NCBI RefSeq assembly: GCF_011045215.1
Contig: NZ_CP049201.1
DNA from: Escherichia coli
GTDB taxonomy: Bacteria > Pseudomonadota > Gammaproteobacteria > Enterobacterales > Enterobacteriaceae
DNA length: 64,000 nucleotides
Direction: 5' to 3' (one strand)
Shown: one piece after another, positions 4,301-46,000 of the stretch
Layout: the number at the start of each line of letters is the position of its first letter
How positions within the stretch are numbered: the first letter of the stretch is position 1
The notes under the pieces: model-generated
The model's input: the letters and a program-made list of their open reading frames with translations, nothing else
Database searches by the model: none
What the model was told of the DNA's origin: nothing
Program-made: the position numbers and the translations under genes

Positions 4301-4728
4301 CGTCGTTTGATTACGGAACCAAATCCACGAATAACACCGGGGCGCATACCCATAGTATTAGCGGGACTGCAAATAGTGCCGGTGCGCACCAACACAAGAG
4401 TTCCGGTGCATTTGGTGGCACGAACACGAGCATTTTTCCTAATGGTTATACTGCGATTTCAAATCCAAGCGCGGGGATTATGAGCACAACAAGCGGTACT
4501 GGCCAGACTCGTAATGCAGGGAAGACATCATCAGATGGTGCTCATACCCACTCACTGTCCGGCACTGCTGCAAGCGCAGGTGCACACGCACATACTGTCG
4601 GTATTGGTGCTCATACGCACTCCGTTGCGATTGGTTCACATGGACACACCATCACCGTTAACGCTGCTGGTAACGCGGAAAACACCGTCAAAAACATCGC
4701 ATTTAACTATATTGTGAGGCTTGCATAA
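1327..4728 (+). CDS. stf: Side tail fiber protein (Stf family)
   Basis: Long ORF whose N-terminus ([26 protein letters not shown]...) matches the prophage side-tail-fiber family. It has an Ala/Ser/Thr-rich repeat tract and C-terminal GAHTHS-type repeats. ATG at 1327 is preferred over the GTG at 1321 used by the ORF track. Confidence 0.85.
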
Positions 4729-5309
4729 TGGCATTCAGAATGAGTGAACAACCACGGACCATAAAAATTTATAATCTGCTGGCCGGAACTAATGAATTTA
4801 TTGGTGAAGGTGACGCATATATTCCACCTCATACAGGTCTGCCAGCAAACAGTACCGATATTGCACCGCCAGATATTCCGGCAGGCTTCGTGGCTGTTTT
4901 CAACAGTGATGAGGCATCGTGGCATCTTGTTGAAGACCATCGGGGTAAAACGGTTTATGACGTGGCTTCCGGCGACGCGTTATTTATTTCTGAACTCGGC
5001 TTATTACCGGAAAATGTCACCTGGTTATCCCCGGAAGGGGAGTTTCAGAAGTGGAACGGCACAGCCTGGGTGAAAGATGCAGAAGCAGAAAAACTGTTCC
5101 GGATCCGGGAGGCGGAAGAAACAAAAAACAACCTGATGCAGGTAGCCAGTGAGCATATTGCGCCACTTCAGGATGCTGTAGATCTGGAAATCGCAACGGA
5201 GGAAGAAAACTCGTTGCTGGAAGCCTGGAAGAAGTATCGGGTGTTGCTGAACCGTGTTGATACATCAACTGCACCTGATATTGAGTGGCCTGTAATACCA
5301 GAAGTTTAA
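4728..5309 (+). CDS. tfa: Tail fiber assembly protein (Tfa)
   Basis: 193 aa; its start overlaps the stf stop (TAATG). Sequence and position are typical of lambdoid Tfa chaperones. Confidence 0.8.
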
Positions 5310-5428: not shown

Positions 5429-6319
5429 TTAGTTTTTACTATTTATCTTTGTTTGTGGTTCTCCTTCAGCAAGCTCAGCGCCAGTGACAGGATTGATGTC
5501 TTCATGGGATTTCAACCTTGTTGCCATAGCTTTTATCATAGCTTCTTGCTTGGTCGAAAGATTTATCGAGGCCTTCCCATCCCCACCGTCAACCGCTGGA
5601 ACTGGATCGGAAATATAGTCAAAGTTTTCATCACTGTTCCAACTACCTCTGACGTCTTCACCTTCTGACATGTTGTAATATACGTTTTTGTATTTCTCAA
5701 TTGGTGGTAATTTTCCTGGTGGAAAGGTGTTGCGAATTGAATGTAATGCTTTTTCAAATGAAAGCATGTGTGCTGCTTCCCTGGTCATTAAAAATGCCAG
5801 AGTGTCTTTTACTCCAGGATCATCAGTAACATTAATGAGACGTTCGTAAATGATCTTTGCCCGAGCTTCAGCTGCAATATTTGAACGAAGATCGGCCGTG
5901 ACTTCGCCAATAGTATCAACATAAGCTGCAGTCCAGGGTACTCCAGCTGAATTAGTTAATGCTGGGCCTCCTCCGTAGAGGAGAGAAGTTATATGGCTGT
6001 CATTGCCATTTTGAGTTAAGGAACGGTAAAGCTCAGCTTCATTCTCAGTTCCTTCAGCAAGTGCTCCTTTTGCACCTTTGTTGAGCATACCAACAAGAGA
6101 ACCAATAATTTCGAGATGACTTAGTTCTTCTGTTGCTATGTCCATCAGCATATCCCTTCGGCCTGCATCTTCATCACTTAAGCCTTGAGTGAAGTATCGG
6201 CATGCTGCTGCAAGCTCACCCTGTGGCCCGCCGAATTGTTCTAAAAGTAGATTAGCCAAGCCTGGGTTTGGCTCACTTACACGTACTGTATATTGAAGTT
6301 TTTTCACGTGTCTAAACAT
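5429..6319 (-). CDS. katN: Manganese (non-haem) catalase, KatN-like
   Basis: 296-aa protein with ferritin-like di-metal catalase features, resembling Salmonella KatN. A GAGGAGG ribosome-binding site lies 6-12 nt upstream. It is the last gene of a co-directional four-gene cluster. Confidence 0.8.
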   Translation of the reverse strand: MFRHVKKLQYTVRVSEPNPGLANLLLEQFGGPQGELAAACRYFTQGLSDEDAGRRDMLMDIATEELSHLEIIGSLVGMLNKGAKGALAEGTENEAELYRSLTQNGNDSHITSLLYGGGPALTNSAGVPWTAAYVDTIGEVTADLRSNIAAEARAKIIYERLINVTDDPGVKDTLAFLMTREAAHMLSFEKALHSIRNTFPPGKLPPIEKYKNVYYNMSEGEDVRGSWNSDENFDYISDPVPAVDGGDGKASINLSTKQEAMIKAMATRLKSHEDINPVTGAELAEGEPQTKINSKN

Positions 6320-6337: not shown

Positions 6338-6844
6338 TTATTTTTTGGCTTCAACTCCATCAATTTCAGATCTGACCATGAATTGCTCAGTGGTGTCAGG
6401 AATATGGTTAAGAAGCCATTCAGCCATTTGTTTTTCTTCATTAAGAATTGCTTCAATAATGGGTACTGAAGCTGTATCACCCGCATTTTTGGCTGCTGCG
6501 AGAAGAGATGTGTAGCACGCAATTTCAAATTGTTCGAAAACATAGCCACTGATCGAACCTTTGACAATTTCATCAGATGGAAAAATTCCACCAATGGATT
6601 GCCCAAACGCGGCCATTTTACTCATAGAGTCTTTAATGACAGAGCGCGAAATATTATTACGATCAAGTATGCTTTCAAGCTGTGAAAGCTGGTTCTTTGT
6701 TTCGCTAATGTGCTGCTCAATTCTGGAACGTAACTCTGGATAGTTTTCTATCCGGCTGGCCATAGACTCAAGCATTTTTTCAGCTTGTTTCTCCATCGCA
6801 TGTGCATCACGAAGCCAGTCATGGTAATGTTCAATTCTATTCAT
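6338..6844 (-). CDS. yciE: YciE-like ferritin-like (DUF892) stress protein
   Basis: 168 aa; resembles YciE; tightly linked upstream of the catalase gene. Confidence 0.75.
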   Translation of the reverse strand: MNRIEHYHDWLRDAHAMEKQAEKMLESMASRIENYPELRSRIEQHISETKNQLSQLESILDRNNISRSVIKDSMSKMAAFGQSIGGIFPSDEIVKGSISGYVFEQFEIACYTSLLAAAKNAGDTASVPIIEAILNEEKQMAEWLLNHIPDTTEQFMVRSEIDGVEAKK

Positions 6845-6880: not shown

Positions 6881-7387
6881 TCAGGAGTTATCCTGAGCTT
6901 TTTTATTAACGTTATTAAATGCCAGGTCTGTTAATTTGACATCAGTAGCTTTTTCCTCTTCCAGTGTTTCTTTCAGGAGTTTAGCCGCTTTTTTATATCC
7001 TAATTGCTCAGCGAGTGTTACCAAAGTGCCATAACTGGCAATTTCATAGTGCTCTACTTTTTGTGCTGCAGCAATCAATGCAGCATCACGTACTTCATTT
7101 TTATCAGTGCTTTCAATTACCTCATTCGCCTCTTCGATAAGTCCTTCCATTGCGGCACACTTAATTCTTTTCAATTTAAGACCATCTTCAGAATCAACAA
7201 TCTGATCGATGCGTTCAATTTGACCATGTGTCTCATCAAGATGTGACTGAAAAGCAGCGGTTAATTTATCACTATATGCAGAGCGACTAAGTTTAGACAG
7301 TGCCTTTGTTAGTTGTTTCTCAGCGCTGTATGTATCCGATAATAAGTGGATGAAGATATCTTCAACAGATTTAATTTGCATAATCAC
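6881..7387 (-). CDS. yciF: YciF-like ferritin-like (DUF892) stress protein
   Basis: 168 aa; YciF-like sequence; same orientation and operon context. Confidence 0.75.
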   Translation of the reverse strand: MIMQIKSVEDIFIHLLSDTYSAEKQLTKALSKLSRSAYSDKLTAAFQSHLDETHGQIERIDQIVDSEDGLKLKRIKCAAMEGLIEEANEVIESTDKNEVRDAALIAAAQKVEHYEIASYGTLVTLAEQLGYKKAAKLLKETLEEEKATDVKLTDLAFNNVNKKAQDNS

Positions 7388-7459: not shown

Positions 7460-7642
7460 TTAAGAGTCAGATTTACGGCCGCCACCATGGCTATTCTGAC
7501 CACCTTTTTTCCCTGCTTCTGATGCTCTTTGTGGATCGTTTTTAAAATTACCGCCACTATGTTGGCCGCCTTTACGACCAGCGTCAGAAGCTTTTTGTCG
7601 ATCTTCAGCGAAATTACCTGCACCGCCACGATGTTCGGTCAT
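7460..7642 (-). CDS. yciG: YciG-like KGG-repeat general stress protein
   Basis: 60 aa with repeated KGG and GGNF motifs (MTEHRGGAGNFAEDRQKASDAGRKGGQHSGGNFKNDPQRASEAGKKGG...); first gene of the cluster. Confidence 0.7.
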   Translation of the reverse strand: MTEHRGGAGNFAEDRQKASDAGRKGGQHSGGNFKNDPQRASEAGKKGGQNSHGGGRKSDS

Positions 7643-7707
7643 ATCATTTCTCCTCTGATTTTCAAATTGTAAATAACATGTGCCTTGTCAGCACCCAATT
7701 AACTTTA

Positions 7708-7770
7708 GTAACAAATAAGAAAGTGTCAAATAACAGATTGGTATGCGCATTTTGATGTGACAAATAACAG
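7708..7770. promoter_or_regulatory. Putative promoter/operator region of the yciG-like operon with direct repeats
   Basis: Two near-identical 14-mers, GTGTCAAATAACAG (7723-7736) and GTGACAAATAACAG (7757-7770), plus a partial third copy ACAAATAA (7711-7718), in AT-rich DNA just upstream of the yciG-like start. Confidence 0.3.
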
Positions 7771-7872
7771 TTGTAAAAAATATGTGCTCAGTGAGTATAA
7801 TTTATTGATATCTTAGTGATTAATGGGAAGTTTAGGTTGTAACTCAAAAGATTAATATACCCAAATTTACAT

Positions 7873-8211
7873 TTATATATTATTTGATGCTCCTGGTGTT
7901 GTTTTTCTCAATAAGAATACTCTGTAAAATAATTCAATCGTAAGATGGTGGTTATTCATATTTTTGAGATACTTCCTAATAGAGTCCATCCCTTGAATAA
8001 ATAATTGTTTTAAAATTTCGTCTAACAAACTAATTACAAAAACTTTTATATAACCCAAAGAATCATGATTATTCTTAATCGTCAAGATTTGACCGTAAAA
8101 ATTTAAGCACAGAAAATTGTGTGCAAGGATGTGTTGTTCAGTCTGTCGAACTTTCGATAGTTTGAGTATTAAATGATTTCCAGCCGTTATTGATTTTACG
8201 CGTAATTCCAT
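7873..8211 (-). CDS. Hypothetical protein (AT-rich orphan ORF, may be spurious)
   Basis: 112-aa ORF in a strongly AT-rich stretch between the stress operon and ydfJ. No recognisable motif and no obvious ribosome-binding site. Confidence 0.2.
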   Translation of the reverse strand: MELRVKSITAGNHLILKLSKVRQTEQHILAHNFLCLNFYGQILTIKNNHDSLGYIKVFVISLLDEILKQLFIQGMDSIRKYLKNMNNHHLTIELFYRVFLLRKTTPGASNNI

Positions 8212-8377
8212 AAAAAACTTATCTGTTGGAGAGTTATTTGGGGCATATATGGGACAGAAATCGGCCCCAGATAGACAGTGAGATCGATCTCAGGACGCTT
8301 TTGAAAAAATGCAACTATCTGAAAAAACGTAGAAAACGCCAAGGAACCCACAGGATGTGAAAAAACACCTGTGAATT

Positions 8378-9661
8378 ATGGATTTCCAGTTATATTCGCT
8401 CGGCGCAGCGTTGGTGTTTCATGAAATATTTTTTCCTGAATCATCAACGGCAATGGCGTTAATTCTGGCAATGGGAACCTACGGTGCAGGTTATGTCGCG
8501 CGTATTGTCGGAGCATTTATTTTCGGCAAAATGGGCGACAGAATAGGGCGTAAAAAAGTGCTCTTTATTACCATCACCATGATGGGGATCTGTACCACCT
8601 TAATTGGTGTGTTACCGACCTATGCACAGATTGGTGTTTTTGCACCCATCTTGCTGGTGACGCTGCGTATTATTCAGGGATTGGGTGCAGGTGCGGAAAT
8701 TTCCGGTGCCGGTACGATGCTGGCGGAATATGCGCCAAAAGGTAAGCGCGGAATTATCTCCTCATTTGTGGCTATGGGAACTAACTGCGGAACCTTAAGC
8801 GCAACGGCAATCTGGGCCTTTATGTTCTTCATTCTCAGTAAAGAGGAACTGCTGGCGTGGGGATGGCGTATACCGTTCCTGGCGAGCGTTGTCGTGATGG
8901 TCTTTGCTATCTGGTTGCGTATGAATCTGAAAGAAAGCCCGGTCTTTGAGAAGGTTAACGACAGCAACCAACCAACAGCAAAACCTGCACCTGCTGGTAG
9001 CATGTTCCAGAGCAAATCCTTCTGGCTGGCAACAGGGCTGCGTTTTGGTCAGGCAGGTAACTCCGGATTAATTCAGACTTTCCTTGCAGGCTATTTAGTG
9101 CAGACGTTATTGTTTAACAAAGCAATTCCAACAGATGCATTGATGATCAGTTCGATTCTCGGCTTTATGACCATTCCGTTCCTTGGTTGGTTATCCGATA
9201 AAATTGGTCGCCGGATCCCGTATATTATTATGAATACCTCCGCGATTGTGCTGGCATGGCCAATGCTTTCTATCATCGTAGATAAAAGCTATGCCCCGAG
9301 CACCATTATGGTTGCACTGATTGTGATTCATAACAGTGCGGTGCTGGGATTATTTGCTCTGGAAAATATTACCATGGCAGAAATGTTTGGTTGTAAAAAC
9401 CGCTTTACCCGGATGGCTATTTCAAAAGAAATTGGTGGTCTTATCGCTTCCGGTTTTGGTCCTATCCTGGCAGGTATTTTCTGCACCATGACGGAATCCT
9501 GGTATCCGATCGCCATTATGATCATGGCATATTCAGTGATTGGTTTAATCTCTGCGCTGAAAATGCCAGAAGTGAAAGACCGTGATTTAAGTGCGCTGGA
9601 AGACGCTGCGGAAGATCAACCGCGTGTTGTAAGAGCTGCGCAACCTTCCAGAAGTCTGTAA
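8378..9661 (+). CDS. ydfJ: MFS transporter YdfJ (apparently N-terminally truncated)
   Basis: 427 aa with an MFS signature (GKMGDRIGRKK loop). The first transmembrane region expected in this family appears to be missing, consistent with a gene interrupted at a prophage junction. Confidence 0.85.
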   Translation: MDFQLYSLGAALVFHEIFFPESSTAMALILAMGTYGAGYVARIVGAFIFGKMGDRIGRKKVLFITITMMGICTTLIGVLPTYAQIGVFAPILLVTLRIIQGLGAGAEISGAGTMLAEYAPKGKRGIISSFVAMGTNCGTLSATAIWAFMFFILSKEELLAWGWRIPFLASVVVMVFAIWLRMNLKESPVFEKVNDSNQPTAKPAPAGSMFQSKSFWLATGLRFGQAGNSGLIQTFLAGYLVQTLLFNKAIPTDALMISSILGFMTIPFLGWLSDKIGRRIPYIIMNTSAIVLAWPMLSIIVDKSYAPSTIMVALIVIHNSAVLGLFALENITMAEMFGCKNRFTRMAISKEIGGLIASGFGPILAGIFCTMTESWYPIAIMIMAYSVIGLISALKMPEVKDRDLSALEDAAEDQPRVVRAAQPSRSL

Positions 9662-15373: not shown

Positions 15374-15892
15374 TTATAGCAGTAACTGCAGCAGCTGGGC
15401 GAGGGCAAACCTCACCGCTAAAGCTAATACCGTTTCGCAGTCGCCAGCAAAATGCATAACCGCAGTGTAGTTCTGGCCTTTAATATGCCACGCGAACCAG
15501 ACGGTACCCGCTGGCGTACCATCTTCACCGCCCTCCGGTCCGCCGTAGCCGGTAATGGCAATACTGACATCAGCATCCGCACGCTCTATGGCACCGGTTG
15601 CCATTTCTGCTGCCACTTTCTCACTCACCGCAGAATATCGTTCAAGAGATTGCTGGCTTACGCTGAGGATTTTCATCTTTGCCTGATCGGTGAAAGTAAC
15701 AAATCCTGCACCGTAAAATTTGGGTGTATCTTCAGCTGCACACAGGGCGCTAGCCAACTTACCGCCGGTGCATGATTCGGCGGTAGTTAAGCGTAATTGA
15801 TCCGCGATAAGTCTTTGACTCAACGCGGATGTCAGGTTTTCAATAGTGTCGGTATCTGCAAGTTGTACAATTTTATTTCTATTAATGTTCAC
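15374..15892 (-). CDS. ydeJ: CinA-like C-terminal domain protein YdeJ
   Basis: 172 aa; CinA/PncC-like sequence. Confidence 0.8.
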   Translation of the reverse strand: MNINRNKIVQLADTDTIENLTSALSQRLIADQLRLTTAESCTGGKLASALCAAEDTPKFYGAGFVTFTDQAKMKILSVSQQSLERYSAVSEKVAAEMATGAIERADADVSIAITGYGGPEGGEDGTPAGTVWFAWHIKGQNYTAVMHFAGDCETVLALAVRFALAQLLQLLL

Positions 15893-16167
15893 TGTTTTTT
15901 GTCCACGCTTTTATATGTAAAGGTGATTTGCTTTTTCTGTATGCTCGTCCAATATAATAATTTCCAAACATATAAATCCGATTATTCTGAAAATATGTTT
16001 AAGACTTTTCAATCTTCTTAACTTTAGTGAGTTAAATTCTCTGAATATTTGACAGCTAGTTGGCTGATTTTAAATGCCTTATAACAATTGGCAGTATTCT
16101 TATTTGGCAATTATAAAAATAGCAACCAGACTTAATAAGTCAAACCAAACGCAATTAAGGAGTTAGT

Positions 16168-16560
16168 ATGAAATTTCAGGCCATTGTATTAGCAAGTTTT
16201 CTTGTCATGCCTTATGCGTTGGCAGATGACCAGGGCGGTTTAAAACAGGATGCAGCGCCACCGCCGCCTCATGCAATAGAAGATGGCTATCGCGGCACCG
16301 ATGATGCAAAAAAAATGACCGTTGATTTCGCAAAAACCATGCACGATGGCGCTTCGGTTTCACTACGCGGTAATTTGATTTCTCACAAAGGAGAGGACCG
16401 TTACGTTTTTCGCGATAAGAGCGGTGAAATTAATGTTGTTATTCCTGCGGCCGTCTTTGATGGACGAGAAGTTCAGCCGGACCAGATGATCAACATTAGC
16501 GGCAGTCTCGATAAGAAAAGCGCGCCGGCCGTCGTTCGGGTCACTCATTTGCAGAAATAA
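16168..16560 (+). CDS. ydeI: Periplasmic OB-fold (YgiW/BOF family) stress protein YdeI
   Basis: 130 aa with a signal peptide; YgiW-family sequence. Confidence 0.8.
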
Positions 16561-42548: not shown

Positions 42549-42574
42549 CAGCCACATCATGATGACCGTGGCTG
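42549..42574 (+). terminator. Putative terminator hairpin after lsrK
   Basis: Stem CAGCCAC/GTGGCTG enclosing the palindrome ATCATGAT, followed by TTAGTTTT. Confidence 0.4.
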
Positions 42575-43068
42575 TTAGTTTTGAGTATAGTTATTCTTAA
42601 TTCCCTTCTTTTAGAACTGGCTTGTTAAATGCCAGCTTGCAGATTCATCCTTCCATCACCAGTAATATATTCAAGGGGAAATTGCTATTTTTCTTAAAGC
42701 ATTAAGCATAACCCTTATTTTATAGCGAATATTCCTAAAGACACTAATGGATGCAAAAGGGGTTTAATAAACCTCGTTTTTTAGCAATTAGTGCTATTCT
42801 TTGTTAAATATGATGATGATAATTTTCTTATTGAAAGAAACAGTTTTCTTATTAAGCAGCAATAACTCATGATTCATTTTTAAATAAAATAAGAACTATG
42901 CAATTTTTAATCTATCAATTCGAAAGCATTAGCAAATTAGCCAAATTGACACCTTCCCACCTCCAACTAACACTCAATACAGACCTCTGACAATTTAATA
43001 AGTTTCATTTTTAATGTCTGGCGACTCATCTCTTTCGTGGCTGTATTGTTTGTATATGGAGCGTTTAT

Positions 43069-46000
43069 ATGAATAGAATCTATCGCGTGATATGGAATTG
43101 CACTCTACAGGTATTTCAGGCCTGCTCTGAATTAACTCGCAGGGTAGGTAAAACATCAACGGTTAATTTGCGTAAATCCTCTGGACTGACAACGAAATTC
43201 AGTAGATTGACGCTGGGTGTTTTGCTGGCACTAAGCGGTTCAGTGTCTGGTGCGAGTCTGGAAGTTGATAATGGTCAGATTACCAATATTGATACTGATG
43301 TTGCTTATGATGCCTACCTGGTTGGCTGGTATGGCACTGGAGTGCTTAATATTTTGGCTGGCGGTAATGCCGCCTTAACCACTATTACTACCAGCGTCAT
43401 TGGCGGTAATGAGGATTCGGAGGGTACCGTTAATGTTTTGGGTGGCACCTGGCGATTGTATGATAGCGGAAATAATGCAAGGCCTTTAAATGTGGGTCAA
43501 TCCGGAACGGGGACGCTGAATATTAAACAGAAGGGTCACGTCGATGGAGGCTATTTAAGATTAGGTACACAAGCTGCAGGCGTCGGGACGGTTAATGTTG
43601 AGGGAGAGGACTCGGTTTTGACGACCGAATTATTCGAAATAGGTAGCTATGGCACAGGTTCATTAAATATTACGGATAAGGGTTACGTCACGAGTTCAAT
43701 CGTCGCCATTTTAGGCTATCAGGCGGGCAGTAATGGCCAGGTTGTCGTTGAAAAGGGTGGCGAGTGGCTAATAAAAAATAATGATTCCTCAATTGAATTT
43801 CAAATTGGTAATCAAGGAACTGGGGAGGCGACTATTCGCGAGGGGGGGCTGGTTACGGCTGAAAATACGATTATCGGTGGCAATGCCACCGGTATCGGAA
43901 CCCTGAATGTGCAGGATCAAGACTCTGTCATCACGGTACGCAGACTCTATAATGGATATTTCGGTAATGGCACAGTCAATATTTTCAATAATGGACTGAT
44001 TAATAACAAAGAATATTCATTGGTGGGCGTTCAGGACGGTTCCCACGGTGTCGTCAACGTGACCGATAAAGGGCATTGGAATTTCCTCGGAACGGGCGAA
44101 GCTTTCCGCTATATCTATATCGGTGATGCTGGCGACGGTGAACTTAATGTCTCGAGTGAAGGCAAAGTAGATTCGGGAATTATCACTGCGGGGATGAAAG
44201 AAACAGGCACAGGCAACATTACTGTTAAGGATAAGAACTCCGTTATCACTAATCTCGGAACTAATCTTGGTTATGACGGCCACGGCGAAATGAATATCAG
44301 TAATCAGGGGCTTGTTGTCAGCAACGGAGGAAGTTCACTCGGTTATGGAGAAACCGGCGTCGGGAATGTCAGCATCACCACGGGGGGAATGTGGGAGGTC
44401 AATAAGAATGTCTATACCACCATTGGTGTTGCGGGCGTCGGAAACCTCAATATTAGCGATGGCGGTAAGTTCGTATCGCAAAATATTACTTTTTTGGGTG
44501 ATAAAGCAAGCGGTATCGGCACATTGAACCTGATGGATGCGACATCATCGTTCGATACTGTGGGTATCAATGTCGGTAATTTTGGTAGCGGCATCGTAAA
44601 TGTCAGTAATGGCGCCACCCTTAATTCAACGGGCTATGGATTTATCGGAGGAAATGCCTCCGGTAAGGGAATAGTTAATATTTCAACGGATAGTCTCTGG
44701 AATTTAAAGACGTCTTCTACTAACGCCCAATTGCTACAAGTCGGTGTATTAGGCACGGGTGAACTGAATATTACCACCGGAGGTATAGTTAAAGCGCGTG
44801 ATACACAGATAGCTCTCAATGACAAAAGTAAGGGCGACGTGAGGGTGGATGGGCAGAACTCTCTTCTTGAAACATTCAATATGTACGTAGGGACATCTGG
44901 TACGGGTACGTTAACCCTGACGAATAGCGGCACGCTGAATGTCGAAGGTGGAGAAGTTTACTTAGGTGTTTTTGAACCTGCTGTAGGAACGCTAAACATT
45001 GGTGCAGCTCACGGTGAGGCGGCGGCAGATGCCGGATTTATCACCAACGCGACGAAAGTAGAGTTTGGCTCTGGCGAAGGTGTTTTTGTCTTTAATCATA
45101 CCAATAACAGTGATGCCGGCTACCAGGTCGATATGCTGATTACAGGTGACGATAAAGACGGAAAAGTGATCCATGATGCAGGCCATACGGTGTTCAATGC
45201 AGGGAATACTTATAGCGGTAAAACGCTGGTCAATGACGGCCTCCTGACCATTGCGTCTCATACGGCAGATGGGGTAACGGGCATGGGGTCGAGTGAAGTA
45301 ACCATTGCAAACCCCGGTACGCTCGACATTCTCGCATCAACGAACAGTGCAGGAGATTACACGCTGACCAATGCGCTCAAAGGCGATGGCTTGATGCGAG
45401 TGCAGCTGTCATCCTCCGACAAGATGTTTGGCTTTACCCATGCAACAGGGACTGAATTCGCCGGTGTTGCCCAATTTAAAGACAGTACCTTCACTTTGGA
45501 ACGCGACAACACCGCAGCGCTTACTCACGCGATGTTGCAGTCTGACAGTGAAAATACCACATCGGTAAAAGTTGGAGAGCAATCCATTGGTGGACTGGCC
45601 ATGAATGGAGGTACCCTCATTTTCGATACGGATATTCCTGCTGCGACGCTCGCGGAGGGATATATCAGCGTCGATACGCTGGTTGTCGGCGCGGGTGACT
45701 ACACCTGGAAAGGCCGTAACTATCAGGTAAACGGGACGGGCGACGTGCTTATCGACGTGCCTAAACCGTGGAATGATCCCATGGCGAATAACCCTCTGAC
45801 GACGCTCAATTTGCTGGAACACGATGATAGCCATGTCGGCGTTCAACTGGTGAAGGCGCAAACGGTTATTGGGTCGGGTGGCTCATTAACGTTACGTGAT
45901 TTACAGGGCGACGAGGTGGAAGCGGACAAAACGTTACACATTGCGCAAAACGGAACGGTGGTCGCCGAGGGTGATTATGGATTCCGCCTCACGACCGCAC

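Follow-up and report, generated by a model that had tools for sequence, protein, structure and literature searches.

The 112-amino-acid open reading frame (ORF) on the minus strand of the E. coli window analysed here (the whole stretch of 64,000 nucleotides; ATG-started frame at 7873..8211, stop codon included in the coordinates) is very probably not a functional gene, being instead a chance, lineage-specific frame in non-coding DNA at the end of a prophage. It overlies a decayed terminator hairpin and part of a phage attachment arm, its homologues come from the same locus, and it shows no coding constraint. The frame arose because of a 1-nt insertion and the decay of the terminator hairpin, and not because of AT-richness. 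The stretch from 7873 to about 8100 probably acts as DNA, namely as an H-NS-bound silencing or regulatory tract above a promoter-like site at 7702-7729. The remaining stretch from about 8100 to 8211 consists of a decayed intrinsic terminator together with the inner attP arm, which in free relatives are positioned downstream of int across attP. With this analysis a false gene candidate was removed, the disagreement of annotation pipelines about it was explained (the ORF is called in one of five near-identical genomes), and a mutation-by-mutation account was obtained of how a long ORF appeared in non-coding prophage DNA. As a by-product, the right end of the prophage was mapped, from a katN stress operon and its AT-rich upstream tract, over the relic terminator and attP arm, to the ydfJ junction.

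Length and Composition of the Open Reading Frame

The ORF has a GC content of 29.2% and is located in a gap of 735 bp (7643-8377) with 31.7% GC. As stated by the initial annotation, it is the sole ORF of more than 100 codons in this AT-rich gap; the next-longest ORFs comprise 51, 44, and 33 amino acids. The 500 bp from 7701 to 8200 are the lowest in GC of the whole window (28.4%). Other low-GC stretches of the window were found at about 42551-43200, at about 50051-50550, and at 15751-16250 (31.8%, 33%, and 35% GC, respectively, in 500-bp windows). Amino acids with AT-rich codons (F, L, I, N, K, and Y) make up 53% of the residues of the ORF.

When the 735-bp gap was shuffled 5000 times with dinucleotides preserved, 1.2% of the shuffles reached an ORF length of 112 codons or more (mean longest ORF 59 +/- 16) and 0.34% a stop-free run matching the observed 138 codons, both being per-region figures. 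The ORF is longer than expected by chance, a finding that we count against our own verdict. It favours two alternative explanations, a young gene, with an ORF exceeding those of 98.8% of the shuffles, and the remnant of an older one, with an open frame unusually long for its composition. Nevertheless, length alone is weak evidence for a gene, since 20 obviously spurious “shadow” ORFs with a length of 112 amino acids or more are found off-frame inside longer ORFs across the 64-kb window. The ORF resembles such spurious or “shadow” ORFs in possessing an ATG-to-stop frame of more than 100 codons, an inconsistent annotation, no homologues, and no coding statistics. Unlike them it is intergenic, does not shadow a real gene, and is longer than expected at 29-32% GC.

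As one possible explanation, an artefact of AT-rich composition had been put forward in the initial annotation. This proposal is sustained insofar as the open frame is non-genic, but the cause which it names was ruled out by the shuffles. AT-rich DNA is rich in stop codons and yields shorter ORFs, so AT-richness makes such ORFs rarer and is not the cause of the one observed.

Anatomy of the Prophage Right End

A lambdoid prophage occupies the Qin-type site in ydfJ, and the locus forms its right end. The annotated records show a minus-strand operon left of the ORF, with a gene for a yciG-like con-10 family general stress protein as its first gene (7460..7642), the ferritin-like yciF-like (6881-7387) and yciE-like (6338-6844) genes, and a katN-like Mn catalase gene (5429-6319). 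The tail-fibre assembly gene tfa, alongside a tail fibre gene, is found on the plus strand at 4728-5309. On the right side, ydfJ' (8378..9661, plus strand) is a 5'-truncated MFS transporter pseudogene at the insertion site (“missing N-terminus”), and ydfI, ydfZ, and rspR are located to the right of it. The katN/yciE/yciF/yciG-like cargo is 98-100% identical (pS 0.01-0.07) among prophages at at least five chromosomal sites, and its genes show a clear third-position substitution bias. The moron at this locus is the yciG-katN operon and not the ORF.

The start codon and the first 20 codons of the ORF are supplied by the attP arm of ydfJ-integrating lambdoid phages (8152..8386). At positions 8152-8380, identity to K-12-type Qin remnants (right end) is about 91%. 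The free phages mEp460_ev081, HannyBb, Tritos, and PhiR42_1 match the same arm at 90.6% identity, and in mEp460_ev081 and HannyBb it directly adjoins the 3' end of int. Window and free phages are collinear through GTGAATTATGGATTTC (8371-8386) and then split, the window continuing into ydfJ and the phages into int; the phage/chromosome junction is found immediately after this sequence. Since the free phages carry 8152-8386 next to int and are collinear with the window up to the junction, this segment is identified as an attP arm, which places the ORF in prophage DNA along its full length. For the same reason, an assignment of 8152-8386 to an N-terminal ydfJ fragment or to other chromosomal DNA was ruled out. 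The ATG of the 427-amino-acid ydfJ' ORF is located inside the core shared with the phages, with an in-frame TGA two codons upstream (8372-8374); the att core or the phage arm may therefore provide the truncated ydfJ with its start.

Further inside the ORF, at about codons 25-37, the relic of an intrinsic terminator was found on the minus strand (8100..8140), of which only a 5-bp stem (8107-8124) is left. All eight diverged relatives, the Qin remnant, and the two free phages read possess at this place a G+C-rich minus-strand hairpin and, after it, a U-tract (L003, about 4461-4499; free phages L017 and L018, 2951-2990). The stems of the relatives and the Qin remnant comprise 10-12 bp, with a minimum free energy of -16.6 to -20.1 kcal/mol for the four copies folded (L003-L006; segments of about 57-61 nt). 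They differ between groups of relatives yet still pair. Decay of the hairpin was observed solely in the window lineage, chiefly by G/C-to-A/T changes.

Measured in the free phages, the hairpin follows the core at a distance of about 235-275 nt and the int stop at about 290-330 nt. In the relatives, the hairpin and its U-tract are on the int-sense strand and, in the free phages, past attP; at this place the window carries the 5-bp stem. We take the place of the hairpin beyond attP to be the position of lambda tI/sib. As in the lambda attP P arm with tI/sib, the order in the free relatives is int, att core, about 235-275 nt, and the G+C-rich hairpin with U-tract, and after integration the hairpin of the relatives is found at the far (attR) end of the prophage, as for lambda tI/sib. 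Presumably, this int/att/hairpin geometry resembles that of lambda. Differences to lambda sib concern the lack of sequence similarity, the lambda-type P arm which the L004 prophage bears in addition, and the decayed hairpin of the window. That prophage occupies the lambda att site; beyond the shared spacer and hairpin it has a second hairpin along with sequence that is presumably lambda sib/P-arm (…TTAGCGCAAGAAGACAAAAATCACCTTGCGCTAATGCTCTGTCTCAGGTCACTAATAC…; L004, about 4600-4760). If this recognition holds, the L004 prophage would possess two int-distal terminators in tandem.

Conservation of the Frame Among Related Prophages

A total of 13 copies were read, comprising the window, four near-identical genomes, and eight diverged relatives. 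The sites of the diverged copies are prfC, lambda att by ybhB/bioA, a CP-933X-type site beside a SAM methyltransferase gene, and the yfhH side. Over 741 bp the window is 100% identical to E. coli strain 100181 and 99.9% identical to strain 55989. The spacer part 7645-8150 was detected in 381 of 5426 complete E. coli genomes, with 5 copies at 99% identity or more, 16 at 90-95%, 356 at 80-90%, and 4 lower. O157-type sequences (about 82% identical) accounted for 39 of 45 copies (about 85%) in an evenly spaced sample of the 381.

The full 112-amino-acid frame was found in 5 of the 13 copies read, these five being the copies of at least 99% identity among the 381 spacer-bearing genomes and differing by 1-4 nt. 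Stops or frameshifts break the frame in six of the eight diverged relatives, including all three O157-type loci. In L003, L004, and L007 a T6 or T7 run replaces the T5 homopolymer of the window (7961..7965) and shifts the frame. The O157-type copies L005, L010, and L011 contain two in-frame stops, and no ORF of more than 25 codons exists across the equivalent 500 bp. L008 and L009 retain a piece of 63-69 codons (the range among relatives reaching 71). No conserved frame was found on either strand across the aligned copies.

The alignment also revealed how the long frame came about. Among the aligned copies, an extra base at 8083 is found in the window lineage only and is missing from all eight diverged relatives. 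In L003, L004, L007, and L008 an ATG at this point opens a frame of about 70 codons (MVKYNHDSL...); in the window that ATG is lost and the short frame continues into the upstream open frame. Because the insertion at 8083 is unique to the window lineage, the 112-amino-acid form is derived and not ancestral. This 1-nt insertion, together with the multiple hairpin changes in the 55989-like lineage, removed the stops and the frame break. The outcome was the fusion of the frame of about 70 codons with the upstream frame, i.e., two short chance frames joined, and the terminator decayed at the attR end, where it serves no function. As in de novo gene birth, a long frame was generated from identifiable recent mutations in non-coding DNA. 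Unlike in de novo gene birth, no sign of expression or selection was observed, and the ORF is at most a candidate proto-ORF.

Two observations from these comparisons were counted against the non-gene verdict, namely the frame being intact in all five genomes of the lineage and a 6-nt, frame-preserving deletion in the O157-type copy. The deletion, together with the frames of 63-71 codons retained in some relatives, would fit with a decaying remnant of a once-real phage b-region gene, whose frame is best kept in the window lineage. This explanation is at odds with the derived nature of the 112-amino-acid form, given that the insertion is unique to the lineage, and with the first 37 or so codons, which lie on terminator and att arm and are demonstrably non-coding in the free phages.

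Coding Constraint and Expression Signals

No purifying selection on the ORF was detected, neither as a third-position excess nor as a dN/dS well below 1. For the ORF part 7873-8100, variable alignment columns at codon positions 1/2/3 amounted to 25/22/27. Using the closer copies only, 16/9/14 were counted, i.e., no codon-position bias, which also speaks against the remnant of a former phage gene. For the neighbouring genes the corresponding counts were 4/0/11 (katN), 0/2/19 (yciE-like), 4/2/11 (yciF-like), and 0/0/4 (yciG-like). Nei-Gojobori pN/pS values were 0.44-0.99 for the ORF frame, 0.43-1.08 for its two off-frames, and 0.04-0.11 for the cargo genes. The five near-identical genomes encode five different protein sequences, and all four substitutions (4/4) are nonsynonymous. 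A codon log-odds model was built from 25 long window ORFs. The ORF scored -0.32 bits/codon with it, and its frame was not the best among six; all seven real genes tested showed positive codon log-odds with their own frame as the best.

Signals for expression were searched as well. No Shine-Dalgarno sequence was found before the ATG of the ORF, the sequence there being CAACAGATAAGTTTTTT. By contrast, the yciG-like gene has the Shine-Dalgarno sequence GAGGAG. Between 8211 and 8600 no minus-strand promoter-like site was found, and there is no minus-strand gene to the right from which transcription could read through into the ORF, with ydfJ and ydfI both on the plus strand. An autonomous moron is a gene placed between phage genes that brings along a promoter and a terminator. 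For the ORF such a promoter-like site is lacking, and the terminator-like hairpin is located inside the ORF and not after it. Of the features of a protein-coding gene, frame preservation, a family of homologues, and signals for translation and transcription were all found missing. From these sequence features we infer that the ORF is not translated.

Annotation and Homologue Searches

Of the five near-identical genomes, one has the ORF in its PGAP annotation (hypothetical protein WP_032300779.1) and four do not. The protein was also deposited as OKV54151.1, and several submitters label the ORF as hypothetical protein. The exact ORF sequence was found on at least 44 further contigs. The corresponding 90% protein cluster contains 22 member sequences, one of them a C-terminal frameshift variant. 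An AlphaFold2 single-sequence model gave a pLDDT of 49.6 and a pTM of 0.38, where low confidence is expected either way due to the lack of alignment depth.

Two further observations concern the annotation of this type of prophage end. For E. coli 55989 (L002, NC_011748.1 1754665-1755405), the RefSeq locus tags skip from EC55989_RS08700 (yciG-like) to EC55989_RS08690 (ydfJ'), which suggests that a gene model between the two, possibly this ORF, was retired on re-annotation. A plus-strand “capsid protein” of 38 amino acids (WP_369865904.1) is called by PGAP at prophage right ends, where it spans the terminator hairpin (L004 4463-4576 (+), L014 2190-2255 (+)). Its translation INAQHVVCKNVLRLAGELSIVRVLNDFQPLPILLCFQ is without a proper start, and it looks like another spurious call.

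These data bear on the possibility that the ORF is a proto-gene, a young coding gene restricted to the 55989-like lineage, where terminator decay and the 1-nt insertion would have given rise to it, and that it is translated at some level. The intact ORF in 5/5 lineage genomes, its exact sequence on the further contigs, and the calls as hypothetical protein by PGAP and several submitters speak in favour of such a gene. On the other side stand the missing Shine-Dalgarno sequence and upstream promoter-like site, the negative codon-usage score, the exclusively nonsynonymous substitutions within the lineage, the frameshift variant in the 22-member cluster, the low confidence of the AlphaFold model, and the omission of the ORF by PGAP in four of five genomes. 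We consider a proto-gene of this kind very unlikely. A proto-gene just after its birth in H-NS-silenced DNA, possibly translated once silencing is lifted, is in our judgement slightly less probable still.

Homologue searches agreed with the non-gene reading of the ORF. A Pfam search of the 112-amino-acid product gave nothing even at E<=10, in line with the earlier remark that no motif is recognisable. Searching PHROGs, a single weak match to phrog_35010 (function unassigned; E=0.0058) was obtained. We count this match against the non-gene verdict and in favour of a former phage gene; it was uncorroborated by either of the two large protein searches (5.8 billion proteins and 1.84 billion representatives). 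The word-indexed search of the 5.8 billion proteins yielded solely near-identical copies and truncated versions of 65-71 amino acids. The exhaustive HMMER search of the 1.84 billion representatives yielded two matches, both of them truncated E. coli versions from the same locus. A tblastn search of 50,697 phage records gave a single match of 39 residues, which falls within att-arm DNA. The lack of a related protein among the 1.84 billion representatives and the restriction of the tblastn match to the att-arm part add to the evidence against a decaying phage b-region gene, which we regard as highly improbable. The initial annotation had considered a small phage or moron gene and had named a protein homology search as a check. 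The searches found no homologues beyond the locus, and judged by the refuting condition set out in that annotation the gene reading fails computationally, with the frame broken in most copies and no coding signal.

The AT-Rich Spacer Upstream of the katN Operon

Two thirds of the ORF (7873 to about 8100) lie on the operon-distal part of an AT-rich spacer (7643..8100, 23-34% GC) upstream of the yciG-like operon; the spacer is present in 381 E. coli genomes. Divergence of this spacer rises with the distance from the operon, with about 6-11% at 7643-7872 and then 7-27% at 7873-8100. So steep a fall in identity next to the cargo genes points to a boundary of recombination or mosaicism within the spacer, or to a recent spread of the operon among prophages. 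The best promoter-like site of the region is found on the minus strand at 7702..7729 (TTGACA, 16 nt, TAAAGT after C; 10/12 matches). It is located between the ORF and the operon, 144 nt past the ORF stop and about 60 nt ahead of the first codon of the yciG-like gene. Its -35 hexamer is identical in all nine aligned copies. We infer that this sigma-S-type promoter-like site serves the operon as promoter.

The spacer probably represents an H-NS-silenced upstream or regulatory region. It is AT-rich DNA (28.4% GC at 7701-8200) beside a horizontally acquired, H-NS-repressed operon. For the H-NS high-affinity motif, one 9/10 match to TCGATAAATT was detected at 7799-7808, with no enrichment. The katN operon of O157:H7 (z1922-z1924, CP-933X prophage) is activated by RpoS and OxyR, and katN was up about 450-fold in an EHEC delta-hns mutant (PMC5363993). 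No promoter mapping for katN is contained in that paper (PMC5363993), and a 2026 McbR paper offers no usable site. With the yciGFE(katN) upstream region the locus shares the same four-gene operon downstream on the same strand and a very AT-rich tract above it, and the spacer copy of the O157 CP-933X katN operon is 82% identical. In Salmonella and E. coli K-12, the yciGFE(katN) locus reportedly depends on sigma-S and undergoes silencing by H-NS (Beraud et al. 2010). Unlike the spacer, which is matched in 381 of 5426 genomes, the chromosomal yciG upstream region occurs in all E. coli, and it showed no blastn similarity to the spacer.

Instead of serving solely as regulatory DNA, a conserved stretch of this kind might give rise to a structured non-coding transcript such as a small RNA. 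Prophages at different sites show 89-94% conservation in the proximal spacer (7643-7872), and EHEC prophage ends are known sources of sRNAs. Searching Rfam at E<=1, two implausible eukaryotic matches and nothing else were obtained; the terminator, decayed in the window, is the sole strong hairpin that is conserved, and conservation drops smoothly away from the operon, as expected of promoter-proximal DNA beside a recombination boundary. We regard such a transcript as extremely improbable and retain the reading of the spacer as a probable silenced upstream region. In O157:H7 F8492 an inserted IS1203 element (IS3 family; L012, 235-1448) separates the yciG-like gene from the spacer upstream of it, and this insertion should uncouple the katN operon from the upstream region in that strain.
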